A stretch of DNA of 38,172 bases from a virus. Positions 3,210 to 16,185 of this stretch are shown in pieces. The stretch lies in the IMG/VR virus record IMGVR_UViG_3300005077_000048, positions 1-38,172 of that record; one strand, given 5' to 3'. Under the pieces are notes generated by a model. That model saw nothing but the letters and a program-made list of their open reading frames with translations. It searched no databases and had not been told where the DNA came from. The translations under genes and the position numbers were made by a program. Numbering within the stretch: position 1 is the first letter of the stretch; each line of letters starts with the position of its first letter.

Positions 3210-4992
3210 GTGGGTATTTTATCTCATAATCATCCTCATCACCATGAGCTGGGTACTTCGTTCGCCAGAATGGTGCGAGTATTTTTGCGGTGATCGTCGC
3301 GGTGACCGAGAGGAGCTTGCCGACCTGCTTGCTCACTTCTGCAGTCACGGTTGTCGTTGCGTTCATCACCACTGCTCTTCCTGCCTCAAGCGATGCCGAG
3401 ACGTTCACAGTCGCCTCGAGCACCTTCGCTTGGATCTTGTCGATTGTCGCCGTGATGGCGGTCGACGCCTCGAGGAGTTTCCCCGGGATCTTCGTCAGGC
3501 TTGCGGCTATGGTAGTGGTTGCCCCGAGCGTCTTCGATAGGCCCTTAGTCAGGCTTGCCGTCACGTTCGCTGTGGCCTCAAGGATCTTGCTCGTGCTGAT
3601 TGTCTTGGTAAGCGTTGCGGTTATAGTCGAGGTCGCGTCGAGGAGCTTGCCTGGCACCTTGGTCAGTGTGGCCGAGATGTTGAGGCTTGCGTCTAGGTCA
3701 AGGAGGTATACCTTCGTCGCTTCGAGAGCCGCGCTCACCGTTGCGGTCACGTCGAAGGTCTTCGCCATCTGCTTGAACATCGACGCGGTCGCTGTTGCTG
3801 TGACGTTGAATGTCTGGGTGAGTTGCTTCAGGACCGATGCACTCACTGTTGAGGTGACTGCCATGGTCTTTGATACCTGCCGAATGAACGAGGCGGCCGG
3901 TGTCACGGTTGCCGTTACGGTCTGGTCGTACTGGGTTGTTGCCAGAGGCGCGATCGATGCCGCGATTCGTCCGTTGTTTGATTTGAGTCCTGTCCATTGC
4001 ACCGCCACCGATCCAGTGCTTACCGTTCCGTTGCTGTCTGCGTATGCTAGACCGTCATCGTAGTATTGCCTTAGTGTAGTGAGTGCTCCTGCAAGGGTCA
4101 CATAGCTTGCTCCCGGGGTATCGAAGTCGTTGTTGAATCCGATCGTTACGGATACCATCCAGCAGTTTGCGGCGGTTACGGTGACGTTGAATGATGAGCC
4201 ACCGTTTCCTTGTGCAGTTCCGTCCGGTACTCCGCTTTGTAGACATCCTGTGTAGCTTGCTACGATGCCTCTCATTTGGATGCTTCCCGAGCATGTGAAT
4301 ACCGTGTTGTTCGTTCCTGTAGCCGGAGCTATAAGGTATCGCATCTGGCCGGGAGCGTTGTTTGCTGTGTATGTGAAGTTCGAGCCGATTTGCGTCGTTC
4401 CTACTCCGTTGTATTCGACGCTCGTCCATGATCTTGTGTTGTCTTGAAGGACTCCTCCGGTGATGAGAAGTCTGTTTGATCCCGATGTGGTGTGGGATAC
4501 CGTAAGAGAGTTTGTCGTTCCAATGTTCTTACTGCTTGAGTCGTATGCGATCGCCCCTCCGATGAGCGGTGCGAGCATGCCGTTTAGGTCTCCTTGGAAG
4601 GAGAGCTTGAGTCCCAGCACCATCATCGTGAGGAATACCGGCTGTGGCATGAATCCGTACTGTGGCTTTGGCTCCCATGCTTCCTTCCATACCCTGCGGA
4701 CAATGCCTTCTGCGTGCGCTACGACGGCCTCCAGCGTGTAGAAGCTCCTGTGGACGTGTAAGTTCCCCTTCTCGTCCTTCCATGCCTCAGTGGTCGATTC
4801 ACAACGAATAGTGTCTCCTATCCCGTTCGGTCCGAATGCACGCCAGAAGACCACCTCCCATGCTCGGAAGATGTTGTGAGTCCAGTTGCCCTTTACCCAC
4901 TCGATGTCGCGCGGAAGGTACCTCTCGCGCCCCGTGATGAACGCCAGTATCTTTGGGAGTATCTTCCTCATTGGATGTACCTTTGTATTCAT
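3202..4992 (-). CDS. Tail fibre/spike-like protein with C-terminal 18-residue tandem repeats, 596 aa
   Basis: Thr/Ser/Ala/Gly-rich central domain. Eleven repeats of the type TK.PGKLLDATSTITATL at residues 370-571. Alternative start M8 at 4971. Confidence 0.6.
   Translation of the reverse strand: MNTKVHPMRKILPKILAFITGRERYLPRDIEWVKGNWTHNIFRAWEVVFWRAFGPNGIGDTIRCESTTEAWKDEKGNLHVHRSFYTLEAVVAHAEGIVRRVWKEAWEPKPQYGFMPQPVFLTMMVLGLKLSFQGDLNGMLAPLIGGAIAYDSSSKNIGTTNSLTVSHTTSGSNRLLITGGVLQDNTRSWTSVEYNGVGTTQIGSNFTYTANNAPGQMRYLIAPATGTNNTVFTCSGSIQMRGIVASYTGCLQSGVPDGTAQGNGGSSFNVTVTAANCWMVSVTIGFNNDFDTPGASYVTLAGALTTLRQYYDDGLAYADSNGTVSTGSVAVQWTGLKSNNGRIAASIAPLATTQYDQTVTATVTPAASFIRQVSKTMAVTSTVSASVLKQLTQTFNVTATATASMFKQMAKTFDVTATVSAALEATKVYLLDLDASLNISATLTKVPGKLLDATSTITATLTKTISTSKILEATANVTASLTKGLSKTLGATTTIAASLTKIPGKLLEASTAITATIDKIQAKVLEATVNVSASLEAGRAVVMNATTTVTAEVSKQVGKLLSVTATITAKILAPFWRTKYPAHGDEDDYEIKYPHD
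3280..3885 (-). repeat. Eleven degenerate tandem coding repeats (54-60 nt, 18-20 aa)
   Basis: Units IRQVSKTMAVTSTVSASV / LKQLTQTFNVTATATASM / FKQMAKTFDVTATVSAAL / ... / SKQVGKLLSVTATITAKI read from the ORF translation. Confidence 0.8.
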
Positions 4993-5000
4993 GACGCGGT

Positions 5001-5019
5001 GGAAGGACTCGAACCTTCC
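5001..5019 (-). other. Isolated tRNA T-arm-like hairpin (GGAAGG-TTCGAGT-CCTTCC)
   Basis: Minus-strand read GGAAGGTTCGAGTCCTTCC followed by ACCGCGTC then ATG 4992. No matching acceptor 5' strand or D arm upstream. Confidence 0.5.
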
Positions 5020-5037
5020 TGTCTGCCAGTGCCGCTT

Positions 5038-5063
5038 GAGACGACCAGGCGCCTGTTCGTCTC
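5038..5063 (-). other. Strong stem-loop 3 nt downstream of the 5066 stop codon
   Basis: GAGACGA-C-CAG-GCGC-CTG-T-TCGTCTC. No U tract, so not a canonical intrinsic terminator. Confidence 0.4.
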
Positions 5064-13181: not shown

Positions 13182-14828
13182 CTACTCCGCTTCCGTTTTT
13201 GCCTTCCTCTCGAGTGCGATCTTGAAGTATATGAGGGCGTGCAGGAGGTCGTCCTTGCCGGTTGATACCCATTCGCGGCTTGCGATGCCGAGCCTGTCGG
13301 TCACCGTTCGCGCGTAGGTCGTTTCCACGTGGTCGATGAGCATCTTGATTGCCTCGTCGTGCGGACCGTAGAAGAAGCGGATCCTGCCGTTCTTGAGGTC
13401 TGACAGCACGAGGTCGATGATGCGGTCGCGTTCCGTGAGCACCCTGATCTCCTCTTCGAAGTCCTTTTGGTCCCCCGTGAAGTCGTCGTCTGAGAAGCGT
13501 ATCACCTTGGCCTTCTTCGGGTCGTCCTTGTACCAGTTCACCCATACCCTGCCCGGGAATCGCTTGGCCGCGTCGATTGAGTCCTGCGGTTTGTAGCCTC
13601 CGTCGATGACGCAGTAGCGCACGTCGTATGCCTCCATGAGCTCTGCCCAGCGGTCCCACTTGCTCTTGCCGTGTTTGCCGTGGCTCTCGATGTATTCCTC
13701 GCTGTCTCGCACCTTTGCGATGACGAATATGCCTTCCTCGGTTCCTATCTGCAGGTAGAGCTCGCGTTCCTGAACGTCCACGCCCATGCATGAGTTGAGC
13801 TCGATGTGGTCTCGGTTAGTGAGGTTGCGGAGGATGAGGTCTTTGCTGATTCGGCTTTCGCTCGAGACGTATGGAAGCCCTAGCTTGTGGTTATAGAAAT
13901 AATCCATTGTCGCCTCGTTCTTGCCGGCCAGCGCATCGTTGTAGTAGTCGACGAGTGAAGCGCATGTGATCCACGGGATGATCATCTGGGTCATGAGGTA
14001 GCCCCGTCGCTTTCGCCCCGGGTACTTTGCCTTCCAGCGTCCGGTCCCTTCAGGGTTCGCCTTGCTTCTTGGTCTGATCCATTCGGGCTTCAGGTCCTTT
14101 CCGCAGGTACTGCAGATGTATACCTTCCGCTCGAGGCTCACGTTTGCGGGCCACTCCATGTGTTGTTCCTTTCCGCAGTGTCCGCAGTTGAAGCGCCAGT
14201 GCCTCTGGTCACTTTCGAGGATCACCTTGTTGATGCCGTAGTTCGGCACGGTCGGCGTCGAGATGTATCGTTTCTGCCTGAGCGAGTCCCAACCTTCCTG
14301 TCGTGAGTCGTATATTCCGATCGACTGCATCTCAGACTTGTCGAGCTCGTCGTAGGTGTTGCGGTCCGATGTGAGCATGAGCGATTCGCTCTCCGACTTC
14401 GTTCCCTTGAAATAGAGGAAGCCTTTGCCGAATTGTTTCTGGCTCACGCTCTCCACCTCCTTGTCCTTCACGAGCATCTTGATCGCGGGGTTGCGCTTGA
14501 TCATCTCGTTCACCTTCGAAGGCACGAACTTGTTCACCGCGTCGATTGTCGGCAAGGTGTGGATCTGGTTGATGCCGAAGTACCGACTGTCGTGTATCTC
14601 AGAGAGTATGGCCCATGTTGACACTCCAGCCTGCGACGGTTTCTGTATGGCTACCTCTTGATGTTTCTCCTCGGGTGGTAGGTCGTAGAGCTCATTGAGA
14701 AAGAAGTGCGGGCTGTTTTTGCCCACGTCTATCACCTTCCCCTTCTCGTTTACGATGCCCTTGGCTTTGATCCACGCTCTGGTACTGGCGCGTATCGCCG
14801 CCTCGACCATCGGATCATAGTTACTCAT
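13182..14828 (-). CDS. terL: Terminase large subunit (GpA-like), 548 aa
   Basis: Walker A-like KPSQAGVST, acidic YDELD. Zinc-ribbon-like FNCGHCGKEQHMEW...CSTCG, as in lambda gpA-type terminases. C-terminal nuclease-sized domain. Confidence 0.8.
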   Translation of the reverse strand: MSNYDPMVEAAIRASTRAWIKAKGIVNEKGKVIDVGKNSPHFFLNELYDLPPEEKHQEVAIQKPSQAGVSTWAILSEIHDSRYFGINQIHTLPTIDAVNKFVPSKVNEMIKRNPAIKMLVKDKEVESVSQKQFGKGFLYFKGTKSESESLMLTSDRNTYDELDKSEMQSIGIYDSRQEGWDSLRQKRYISTPTVPNYGINKVILESDQRHWRFNCGHCGKEQHMEWPANVSLERKVYICSTCGKDLKPEWIRPRSKANPEGTGRWKAKYPGRKRRGYLMTQMIIPWITCASLVDYYNDALAGKNEATMDYFYNHKLGLPYVSSESRISKDLILRNLTNRDHIELNSCMGVDVQERELYLQIGTEEGIFVIAKVRDSEEYIESHGKHGKSKWDRWAELMEAYDVRYCVIDGGYKPQDSIDAAKRFPGRVWVNWYKDDPKKAKVIRFSDDDFTGDQKDFEEEIRVLTERDRIIDLVLSDLKNGRIRFFYGPHDEAIKMLIDHVETTYARTVTDRLGIASREWVSTGKDDLLHALIYFKIALERKAKTEAE

Positions 14829-15378
14829 CGTCGTCGAGTGCTTTTAGGTATGCCTCCGCGGCCGCCTTTTCTGCCTTGGTTGGTAGGCGTTGCTCTTCGA
14901 CCTTAATCTCGCCGGAGTGCTCTATCTCCTGCTTTGATTTTCCGAGCGTGCGGTCTAGGTACTCCTTCGCGGCTGGAATGTTTTTGTTCTTCAGCCCTTC
15001 ATGCGCGAGCATGTCGAGCAGTGCCACGAGTCGAGGCTTCTTCTGCTTCTTCACCTCGTTCGTTCCTCGATCCGTAACGACCACCTCGACTTCTTCCATG
15101 AGGTGTTGCTCCTTGATTTCAATGACCTTCTGGCTCTTGGTGAGTGACGTCGGAGCGCTGTTGCCTTCGCGTAGATCTGGGACGTTTCCACCCTCAGATT
15201 TAATTCGGTGTAATTCGGTGCGGAGTTGCTTCTCGGTCATCTTCTCTACACCAATGACACCCGCTTTCGCGAGTCGTTCCTGCAGTCTCTGCTTCTTTGT
15301 TTTAGGACCAGCTCCGTGCTTCTCCGGCTTAGGAGATTTCGACGGGGCCGGAGCTTTGCTCTCGGTTATCCCTTTCAT
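14821..15378 (-). CDS. Putative terminase small subunit, 185 aa (start MKGITESK)
   Basis: Lys-rich ORF overlapping the terL start by 8 nt (ATGAGTAA). ATG 15378 sits 6 nt from a TGCTATACT promoter element. The upstream 27 codons of track ORF 14821..15459 cross the promoter/terminator. Confidence 0.55.
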   Translation of the reverse strand: MKGITESKAPAPSKSPKPEKHGAGPKTKKQRLQERLAKAGVIGVEKMTEKQLRTELHRIKSEGGNVPDLREGNSAPTSLTKSQKVIEIKEQHLMEEVEVVVTDRGTNEVKKQKKPRLVALLDMLAHEGLKNKNIPAAKEYLDRTLGKSKQEIEHSGEIKVEEQRLPTKAEKAAAEAYLKALDDDE

Positions 15379-15542: not shown

Positions 15543-15725
15543 CTACCTCTTTCCTTTTTTCTTTGCACGTTGCTTGTGCACTTTGATTGCGCGGACCTCG
15601 ACCTGCCACATCTCCTCCCCCTTCTCGACCTTCACGTCAGTGTCGGCGTAGAGCTCGAGGTGGGTGATCGTCGGGCGTTTGGAGTTCACTATCGCATAGA
15701 GGATCTTTGGTCTTGGTTTGCTCAT
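15543..15725 (-). CDS. Hypothetical basic protein, 60 aa (start MSKPRPK)
   Basis: ATG 15725 lies 4 nt after the tRNA-like 3' end. The longer track ORF 15543..15764 would read through the tRNA-like gene. Confidence 0.5.
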   Translation of the reverse strand: MSKPRPKILYAIVNSKRPTITHLELYADTDVKVEKGEEMWQVEVRAIKVHKQRAKKKGKR

Positions 15726-15729
15726 AAGG

Positions 15730-15813
15730 TGGACCAGCGAGGAGTCGAACCTCGGACCTCCCATCCCCGTCCTATCGGTCGGGGTGGGTGCTCTACCGTT
15801 GAGCTACTGGACC
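15730..15813 (-). tRNA. tRNA-like gene with canonical acceptor/D/T arms but a non-canonical 29-nt anticodon arm (no assignable anticodon)
   Basis: GGTCCAG-TA-GCTC-AACGGTA-GAGC-A-CCCACCCCGACCGATAGGACGGGGATGGG-AGGTC-CGAGG-TTCGACT-CCTCG-CTGGTCC-A. One U3-U70 mismatch. Confidence 0.6.
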
Positions 15814-15933
15814 AATCGGAGGGCTTGGGTTCCCTCCGACCGCCGGGGATTCTCTCCCCAAAATTAGCATGCATACTACCTGTCCTTGCGAACAGGAATG
15901 GAGGACCGATTACTCAGTCCCCCTACCTAGTCA

Positions 15934-16185
15934 CTAGGCTCCTGTCACCCCACTTTCGTTAGGCTGGGTTGATCGCGGGTCGTTGAGGACGAGCCCTTTG
16001 ATTGCCCACATTGCGCTCGTCTCGAGCTCAGTGATTGCCACTGAACGCTCTCGGCTTGCTGGCAATGACAGTAGGAACTTGTGCACTGCAGTGTATGCAT
16101 CGCGAGTCTCCTGAATCAGCGGAAGCATTTCATCTGCTGGCTTGAAGTACCCGAATGGATTCACTGGTGTTGCTTTGTCATCCAT
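15934..16185 (-). CDS. Hypothetical small helical protein, 83 aa
   Basis: ORF with CATATG start. Helix SVAITELETSAMWAIKGLV resembles a motif I recall from small phage nucleotide-sponge-like proteins (unverified). Confidence 0.55.
   Translation of the reverse strand: MDDKATPVNPFGYFKPADEMLPLIQETRDAYTAVHKFLLSLPASRERSVAITELETSAMWAIKGLVLNDPRSTQPNESGVTGA

Follow-up and report, generated by a model that had tools for sequence, protein, structure and literature searches.

Transfer RNAs embedded in longer transcripts can set the ends of neighbouring messages: in mitochondria, and in the thrU-tyrU-glyT-thrT-tufB unit of Escherichia coli, the excised tRNA units define the ends of the mRNAs beside them. 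The tRNA frame can also process or stabilise a hairpin, as in engineered tRNA scaffolds and in the tRNA-like units with pre-miRNA hairpins of murine gammaherpesvirus 68, and the tRNA region of phage T4 is accompanied by two stable RNAs of unknown function. Plant mitochondria contain t-elements, discovered by a scan for GGTTCRANYCC, which are cloverleaves of non-canonical form with a conserved T arm; they are cut by RNase P and RNase Z, tagged with C or CA by the CCA-adding enzyme and form mRNA ends, that of rps4 lying at +2 of the ATG (PMC1920247). Here we analyse a tRNA-like gene of 84 nucleotides (nt) in the IMG/VR virus record IMGVR_UViG_3300005077_000048, positions 1 to 38,172 of which form the stretch of DNA under study (38,172 nt, hereafter the window). 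In this gene a closed rod replaces the anticodon arm. We propose, believing it about as much as we doubt it, that it is a non-decoding signal derived from a tRNA-Arg, which would direct RNase P and 3' processing so as to give a near-leaderless late mRNA.

Like the plant t-elements, this gene is a non-canonical cloverleaf with a perfect T arm matching GGTTCRANYCC and a position at an mRNA border, and its reduced companion (site 2, below) may be compared with those t-elements that are reduced to stem-loops mimicking the acceptor arm. Unlike them, it belongs to a phage and not to an organelle and is known from sequence, whereas t-element cleavage has been demonstrated; its anticodon arm, moreover, is not degenerate but a selected, well-paired rod that masks a retained arginine anticodon. 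The units that punctuate mitochondrial and E. coli transcripts decode, whereas here the unit adjacent to the mRNA seems to have lost decoding and is kept even without normal tRNAs. As in T4, a small stable-RNA gene lies within a phage tRNA array or at its border and would presumably use the same maturation pathway; no sequence relationship to the T4 RNAs was found by blastn against 50,697 phage records, and to our knowledge the latter are not cloverleaves with a rod for an anticodon arm. As in the intron-containing pre-tRNAs of archaea and eukaryotes, an insert next to position 37/38 pairs with the anticodon and extends the anticodon stem, but the 3-4-3 bulge-helix-bulge (BHB) is missing, position 33 is C, the context is of bacterial type and no splicing enzymes were found. 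As in transfer-messenger RNA (tmRNA), the acceptor/T domain runs into a long irregular helix at the position of the anticodon arm. The scaffolds and the herpesvirus units differ in being artificial or eukaryotic RNA polymerase III transcripts, and we know of no natural bacterial or phage example in which the payload sits at the anticodon position. A literature search found no specific description of a phage tRNA-like gene with an extended anticodon arm.

We recovered the minus-strand layout of the gene exactly as a preliminary sequence-only reading had described it arm by arm (Table 1), and the rod fold given there proved to be part of the unconstrained minimum-energy fold: CCCA/UGGG, a bulged A, CCCCG/CGGGG, an A.A mismatch and CC/GG, closed by GAUA. 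The Rfam tRNA model RF00005, a check that had been proposed, matches at exactly 15813-15730 with 50.1 bits (gathering score 29; model positions 1-71), its alignment showing 21 nt of the element where the model has 9 (stem end and loop); the clade covariance model R1 gives 76.4 bits. The cloverleaf is the fold of minimum free energy, at -39.7 kcal/mol (z = -2.6), and 2 of 200 shuffles were as stable. A 7-base-pair (bp) acceptor stem, a D arm with G18G19 and a T arm with GTTCRA are all present; a 5-bp anticodon stem bearing a 7-nt loop with U33 and purine 37 is not, the arm being a 29-nt closed rod. Default ARAGORN reports no tRNA anywhere in the window. With introns allowed, it calls an implausible Pro(agg), for which the variable region is contorted and a 7-nt 'intron' is placed at 32/33, and it assigns differing anticodons (Gly, Arg, Gln) to the homologues. 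Since no standard tool finds a normal anticodon loop, the observation that this tRNA-shaped gene has no usable one stands. Two other classes of RNA were considered and set aside: a complete or reduced tmRNA, because the D stem is normal, 3:70 is U.U, there is neither tag frame nor pseudoknot and the tmRNA model RF00023 has no match in the window; and a mimic of bacterial Y RNA/YrlA, because there is no Rfam match, the acceptor end is free and carries a discriminator, and an open reading frame (ORF) follows directly.

About 30 related contigs (designated by L numbers) were reached through the large terminase (TerL) and the 185-amino-acid (aa) protein encoded next to it. In nearly all of them a tRNA-shaped gene occupies the same slot, as judged by model R1 and by direct reading, with a homologue of the element in about 20, and the order along the slot is an Acb2/Tad1-like gene, a hairpin-rich leader, the element and the packaging genes. 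The rods come in at least eight lineage-specific forms, all of them helical, of 28 to about 70 nt. Full-length elements were misaligned by MAFFT in the rods, and trimmed cores together with a covariance model were used instead. In six hand-trimmed homologues, 95% of cells are paired and two-sided changes are seen in 15 of 20 pairs; no shuffle out of 500 came up to the real value, and slid controls were 34-49% paired. In 16 model-aligned sequences, 94.6% of cells are paired and such changes affect 17 of 20 pairs, in an alignment that was fitted to the model and includes two normal tRNAs and is thus biased towards structure. The D stem, the base of the rod and the T stem are 98-100% paired in this alignment, with many two-sided changes. 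Between distant members, the acceptor stems are perfectly paired and entirely different in sequence (GGCCAAT/ATTGGCC, GGGGTAC/GTACCCC, GCATATG/CATATGC, TCGCAAG/CTTGCGA). The comparison of homologous contigs that had been suggested as a check therefore came out in favour of a conserved region, whose cloverleaf is kept by compensatory changes. Judged by these alignments, the element is a real RNA gene under selection.

We next consider its origin. In two relatives, L351 and L353, a compact array of normal tRNAs begins with the element, which is followed by Glu-CUC, (Arg-UCG,) Thr-CGU and Leu-GAG with spacers of 1-4 nt. The body of the element is 62% identical to the tRNA-Arg(UCG) of the array, as against 44-51% to the Glu, Thr and Leu tRNAs, and the 5' halves of the element and of the tRNA-Arg are nearly identical. 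The 5' strand of the rod still holds an in-register arginine anticodon (NCG) paired to the insert, a feature that the sequence-only reading had missed; the 3' side of the rod is an insertion bearing the matching codon, which pairs with N34-C35-G36, and C33 stands in place of U33 in all rod types. On this comparison, the element descends from a phage tRNA-Arg whose anticodon arm was zipped into a closed rod by an insertion. Excision of the insert from L001, L006 and L007 recovers NCG, but with C33 and, in two of the three, with a pyrimidine at position 37 as well; excision from the window form leaves a 16-nt arm with a 4-bp stem. Because there is no BHB, position 37 is a pyrimidine in two types, the arm left in the window form has 16 nt and no splicing enzymes were found, we conclude that decoding has most probably been lost and not hidden by splicing. 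By published tRNA identity rules (PMC9976931), the element also looks unlikely to be aminoacylated: it lacks the G3.U70 of alanine, the long variable arm of serine and leucine tRNAs and the G-1 of histidine, and arginyl-tRNA synthetase needs C35 and position 36 in an open loop. An alanine identity through the irregular 3:70 pair was entertained and rejected, 3:70 never being G.U and 4:69 being C-G and not G-C.

The position of the element bears on its possible function in three ways. Firstly, a start codon lies 1-4 nt after the discriminator in the window (A-CCTT-ATG) and in L001, L007, L349, L350, L358, L359 and L360, and the same spacing separates an ATG from the tmRNA of L012 and from a second element in L355. 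At least six different ORFs start with these ATGs; the tRNAs of the arrays are set apart by the same spacing, and position 74 is C in 13 of 14 members. In L359 (1250-1603) and in L012 (from about 2814 onward) the first ORF encodes a HAD-like protein (MKEIIIAFDIDGT..., with a DxDGT motif) and not the KPRPK protein; because the one replaces the other in some relatives, genes appear to have been exchanged at the junction with the RNA-to-ATG spacing kept. Secondly, the window contains another, reduced tRNA-derived element (site 2), followed by GTC and then by the ATG, at 4992, of a 596-aa gene. Site 2 is kept in the L001/L002 phage (L363, 997-1067) with compensatory changes (GGGAGG/CCTCCC, GCGC/GCGC), and there too it lies 3 nt before an ATG, that of a different ORF. 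Exact matches to GGTTCRANYCC occur in the window only as GGTTCGACTCC (15751-15741) and GGTTCGAGTCC (5015-5005), both intergenic and on the coding strand. Thirdly, the element lies on the boundary between replication and modification genes on one side and packaging and structural genes on the other, as gene content on its two sides indicates and as had been anticipated.

Taken together, this placement suggests how the element could work. The acceptor stem, D arm and T arm, which are kept, would be the part recognised by RNase P, by the 3'-end tRNA nucleases and by the CCA-adding enzyme, and the host's enzymes of tRNA maturation would release the element from the transcript. The cut at its 5' end, made by RNase P, would remove the leader, and the 3' tRNA-processing cut, at or just after the discriminator, would leave an mRNA that starts 1-4 nt upstream of the AUG and is effectively leaderless; the products would be a stable tRNA-shaped RNA and the downstream mRNA. 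The element would do this from just downstream of a terminator-like palindrome and T-run, abutting the first packaging/structural gene, or with tRNAs between in some relatives, and site 2, with its T arm only, would do the same before the 596-aa gene. We infer transcription, cleavage and leaderless translation from this arrangement. Among the explanations offered at the outset, a non-decoding processing handle is the best supported, by the fixed slot, the place at the head of a tRNA array, the ATG 1-4 nt away and site 2; for the other version of that proposal, a decoy for defence nucleases, the evidence weighs neither for nor against.

Several observations weigh against the processing signal. 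The acceptor stem, on which RNase P relies, is the weakest helix of the element (85.7% paired in the 16 sequences): pair 3:70 is unpaired in 8 of them (U.U or C.A) and U.G in one, and L349, L350, L359 and L360 each have two irregular acceptor pairs. Adjacency to a start codon is not universal either, the ATG lying 29 nt away in L008 and 41 nt away in L006, and gene packing, which is common in phages, could account for part of it. In L357 and L354 no element was found in the slot. The rod raises a further difficulty, because a pure processing signal would need no particular rod. In the window, L349, L350, L351 and L353, none of the 29 columns of the rod varies, as against 16 of the 55 in the body (Fisher p = 0.0008), in genomes whose neighbouring protein is only 63-84% identical; this constraint exceeds that on the other stems of the same RNA, and no tested explanation fits it. 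The rods of group B (Table 1) share one consensus of 17 pairs, 8 of which show compensatory changes and one of which is kept as U.G, and they preserve a specific internal loop and a GNRA-capped hairpin. The invariance of the one rod and the detail of the other point to an extra, sequence-specific role. With regard to the acceptor stem we also observed that L359 and L360 have A.G at 4:69 and 5:68 in place of the 3:70 irregularity, and that some acceptor combinations resemble recombinants of 5' and 3' halves from different variants.

Such a role is the substance of the alternative that we take most seriously, while judging it unlikely: the tRNA body would be a scaffold for a payload or decoy, the rod binding a hypothetical host or phage protein such as a tRNA-targeting immune effector or a tRNA-Arg-specific factor, which might be captured by the masked arginine anticodon paired to its own codon. 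In group A, that of the window, the rod is the most conserved part of the RNA, group B keeps its loop, U.G pair and tip, and the fast turnover of rod types between lineages is what an arms race might produce. The element also adjoins the Acb2/Tad1-like gene and lies in a phage tRNA island. Phage tRNAs counter tRNA-cleaving defences in known cases (PMC11555353, PMC13096335), and with such a neighbour this anti-defence role makes a payload or decoy plausible. The anticodon, however, lies inside a helix, so that the element ought to escape nucleases specific for anticodon loops; the rod tips are unrelated between lineages, so there is no common ligand-binding motif; and both the adjacency to start codons and site 2 are left unexplained. 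Nor did the 20-nt core of the rod match anything in IMG/VR or in 185,579 species genomes; we accordingly rejected both a copied host RNA and a copied CRISPR repeat, and with them an RNA anti-CRISPR (a solitary repeat mimic) or a mimic of a host RNA. The 9-mer GACCGAUAG in the rod interior (15769-15777, minus strand) is presumably also found in a strongly conserved part of domain I of bacterial 23S rRNA (..GACCGAUAGUGAACCAGUACCGUGAGGG..), which may well be chance. Less probable again, in our estimate, is an RNA device of counter-defence or regulation: an abundant tRNA-Arg look-alike, its anticodon masked by its own codon and its source the phage tRNA island beside the Acb2/Tad1-like gene, that would trap or divert a host factor reading the tRNA body, such as a tRNA-targeting immune nuclease or a modifier of the acceptor end, while sparing translation. 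On that reading, an arms race would have left its mark in how quickly rod types turn over between lineages.

We consider it very improbable that the element is a decaying tRNA pseudogene, functionless and kept by linkage in a compact genome. Of the earlier suggestion of a decayed tRNA, descent from a tRNA-Arg and the loss of the anticodon loop stand, and the acceptor mismatches and the absence of the element from L357 and L354 would fit decay as well. Decay itself does not: the D stem, rod base and T stem stay paired through many two-sided changes, the acceptor stems of distant members differ completely yet pair perfectly, every rod is helical and one of the forms does not vary among five genomes, and the element persists where neighbouring normal tRNAs have been lost or were never present.

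Similarly improbable is a genuine intron-containing tRNA-Arg, from which a new kind of short intron would be removed by an endonuclease and a ligase, possibly conditionally. It has in its favour the tRNA-Arg-like body, an arginine anticodon (CCG, UCG or ACG) at 34-36 after a 5-bp stem in L001, L006 and L007, and an insert which begins near 37/38 and is paired to the anticodon in the manner of archaeal and eukaryal pre-tRNAs; in the unrelated contigs L220 and L088, moreover, canonical U33-NNN-R37 loops (Phe-GAA and Ala-GGC) are followed by inserts. C33, however, is found in every rod type, and position 37 is C in L006 and U in L007. As the sequence-only reading had noted, BHB geometry is lacking: the window rod has a 1-nt bulge, 5 bp and an A.A mismatch, and group B has a 1-2-nt bulge, 6-8 bp and a 2-nt bulge, neither of them 3-4-3. 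It was also right that the insert is too short for a group I intron, which needs about 200 nt or more with a P1-P9 core, since the window's insert has 12 nt and those of relatives no more than about 55 nt, and no Rfam intron matched. Loop positions are missing in L359 and L360, removal of the insert from the window form leaves the 16-nt arm described above, L353 already has a normal tRNA-Arg beside the element, the intron calls of ARAGORN disagree between orthologues, and scans of the phage ORFs found no ligase, kinase or splicing-endonuclease domain; the short-intron option accordingly gains no support as a spliced tRNA. A DNA-level site (pac/cos, operator or recombination site) with a chance likeness to tRNA, or an attP remnant, is scarcely credible despite the terminase genes just downstream and the palindromes in rod and leader, because G.U pairs are conserved on this strand only (the other strand would have A.C), the full cloverleaf covaries and each of the 32 GGTTCRANYCC motifs found in 238 kb of family DNA falls inside a tRNA-type element on the coding strand, while an attP remnant would be a 3' fragment and not a complete tRNA shape and, as foreseen, no integrase was found among about 45 ORFs.

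The leader upstream of the element has the same architecture in L349, L351, L353, L001, L358-L360, L006, L008, L352 and L003, with a fixed series of a long hairpin, a CCTG..CAGG hairpin, a perfect palindrome with GATTTT, two further hairpins and UU; the palindromes of the family include TATGCATA, GCATGCATGC and TACGCGTA. The coding strand is extremely T-poor (14.7% T), with TTTT at only 8 places in 38 kb, one of the other sites being a textbook terminator. Because TTTT is so rare and this other site is a terminator, the palindrome with its T-run is most likely a terminator or attenuator that would close an early/middle unit, perhaps in a region that overlaps a promoter or operator. TAnnTTTG occurs once in the 38 kb, at 15866 in the leader; a Bacteroidota-type promoter may be marked by it, but relatives keep only GATTTT(G).

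All long ORFs of the window are on the minus strand, and its genes generally lack Shine-Dalgarno sequences and have A-rich leaders instead, which suggests that translation in the host does not depend on Shine-Dalgarno pairing. On the upstream side with respect to transcription lie genes for an SNF2 helicase, SSB, a YqaJ recombinase, an exonuclease and several DNA methyltransferases; downstream follow the 60-aa ORF, the 185-aa protein, the large terminase, the portal and the major head protein. LysM and peptidoglycan-binding domains indicate a bacterial-type context, and domain scans of about 45 ORFs found no integrase, RNA ligase, kinase or splicing endonuclease. Immediately before the leader comes the 83-aa gene with an Acb2/Tad1 hairpin domain, and the same family is annotated for its homologues in L349 and L360; its product is a candidate anti-CBASS/anti-Thoeris sponge for cyclic-nucleotide immune signals. 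A blastn search with 601 nt had no match in the 50,697 phage records, and TerL is at best 26% identical to its counterparts, those of Vibrio phages. A search probe made from the N-terminus of the 60-aa ORF was discarded, as it gave chance matches in genomes and a spurious AT-rich viral contig, L316. The array tRNAs of L351 and L353 all read G/C-ending codons, a hint that the G+C content of the host is below that of the phage (55%).

Table 1. Features of the window (minus strand throughout) and of related contigs. Plain positions are those of the window.
Feature	Position or contig	Strand	Remarks
tRNA-like gene	15730..15813	minus	84 nt; Rfam RF00005, clade model R1, minimum-free-energy fold, family covariation
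Acceptor stem	15813-15807 with 15737-15731	minus	GGTCCAG/CTGGTCC, U3.U70
D arm	15804-15790	minus	GCTC-AACGGTA-GAGC
A26	15789	minus	
Rod in place of 17-nt anticodon arm	15760..15788	minus	29 nt; CCCACCCCGACCGATAGGACGGGGATGGG
Variable loop	15759-15755	minus	AGGTC
T arm	15754-15738	minus	CGAGG-TTCGACT-CCTCG
Discriminator	15730	minus	A
Junction	15723..15729	minus	CCTT 15729-15726, then ATG 15725-15723 of first downstream ORF
60-aa ORF	15543..15725	minus	MSKPRPKILYAIV...; first gene after element; N-terminus kept in L001, L003, L007, L358
Packaging module, start	13182..15378	minus	185-aa protein and large terminase
185-aa protein, probable small terminase	14821-15378	minus	unannotated; start inferred from P0001
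Large terminase	13182-14828	minus	PHROG 675, E = 4e-70
Structured leader	15814..15933	minus	same architecture, different sequences in relatives
Leader hairpin H1	15923-15900	minus	
Leader hairpin H2	15896-15879	minus	CCTGT..ACAGG
Leader palindrome and T-run	15877-15866, 15865-15860	minus	AGTATGCATGCT, then AATTTT
Leader hairpin H3	15859-15845	minus	GGGGA..TCCCC
Leader hairpin H4	15839-15816	minus	TCGGAGGG..CCCTCCGA
Leader end	15815-15814	minus	UU
83-aa gene, Acb2/Tad1 hairpin domain	15934..16185	minus	Pfam PF24729, 35.1 bits, cutoff 27
Site 2, reduced tRNA-derived element	4996..5063	minus	hairpin 5063-5038
Site 2, closing stem	5035-5032 with 4999-4996	minus	GCGG with CCGC, 4 bp
Site 2, T arm	5019-5001	minus	GGAAGG-TTCGAGT-CCTTCC, perfect
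29-nt rod of the window	L349, L350, L351, L353		
Group B rod	L001/L002, L358, L359, L360		about 48-52 nt; internal loop CUGUUC...GGAGC, GNRA-capped hairpin
36-nt rod	L006		
10-bp helix, 8-nt loop	L007		
46-nt rod	L008 (same as L362)		
Rod of about 51 nt	L352		another type
About 70 nt in place of arm	L003		
4-bp stem, 9-nt loop	L009		without U33
Canonical-looking UAU arm	L011		body with odd T loop
29-nt arm, different body	L355		
True tmRNA in slot	L012, 2268-2694		same slot as element; CCA end overlaps ATG
tRNA arrays behind element	L351, 1900-2135; L353, 1828-2136		
Positions 32-38	L001		UC-CCG-AC; NCG in register
Positions 32-38	L006		CC-CCG-CG; NCG in register; position 37 = C
Positions 32-38	L007		UC-ACG-UG; NCG in register; position 37 = U
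Positions 32-38	window		CC-CCG-AC; by homology; CCG paired to CGGGG
Positions 32-38	L358		CC-UCG-CU; by homology
Positions 32-38	genuine tRNA-Arg		CU-UCG-GA

Other unusual tRNA-shaped genes came to light on the way. L011 carries, at 4324-4396, what looks like a canonical tRNA-Ile(UAU), its 5-bp stem bearing the loop C-U-UAU-A-C; it is missed by ARAGORN and by the Rfam gathering threshold, probably on account of its T loop (UGCAAGU) and U1-A72. In the unrelated contig L015, a tmRNA (771-1121) is followed after 3 nt by a long-armed tRNA-like gene (1125-1209). A metagenome scan gave no close relative among the matches listed, and showed that long-armed tRNA-like genes are common and varied. Many tRNA-shaped genes in metagenomes and metagenome-assembled genomes combine a perfect 7-bp acceptor stem with an expanded anticodon arm that ARAGORN cannot call (L228/L167, L137/L155/L132/L196/L199, L179, L133, L210, L182 and L220; also L153, L171, L148, L178, L088, which is the same as L281, L078 and L085). 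A human-gut family of such genes has covarying stems and a conserved 19-nt loop containing CU-CCU-AA; in L220 a canonical Phe-GAA loop is followed by a 35-nt insert, in L088 an Ala-GGC loop is followed by an insert, and the gene of L179 has G3.U70 and A73. These long-armed genes may include genuine short tRNA inserts of bacteria or phages.

tRNA-like processing signals and phage tRNA islands are already known. What appears undescribed, judging by the literature searched, is a phage family with a tRNA-Arg made non-decoding by a zipped anticodon, and the selection of such a unit which, together with a second element consisting of a T arm, is placed directly against start codons. The family would illustrate a route from a decoding tRNA to a non-decoding RNA, in which the anticodon is zipped by an insertion. 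The invariance of the rod would allow for a further function that depends on its sequence and may concern counter-defence. The T-arm motif with an adjacent ATG offers a cheap means of searching metagenomic phage genomes for such elements. Should the processing reading be true, tRNA-like genes that annotation tools miss or miscall would be explained, and phages would mark operons with tRNA-derived signals as mitochondria do; the tRNA-trimming enzymes of the host would then make leaderless late mRNAs, a simple separation of early from late messages that is undescribed for bacterial viruses.

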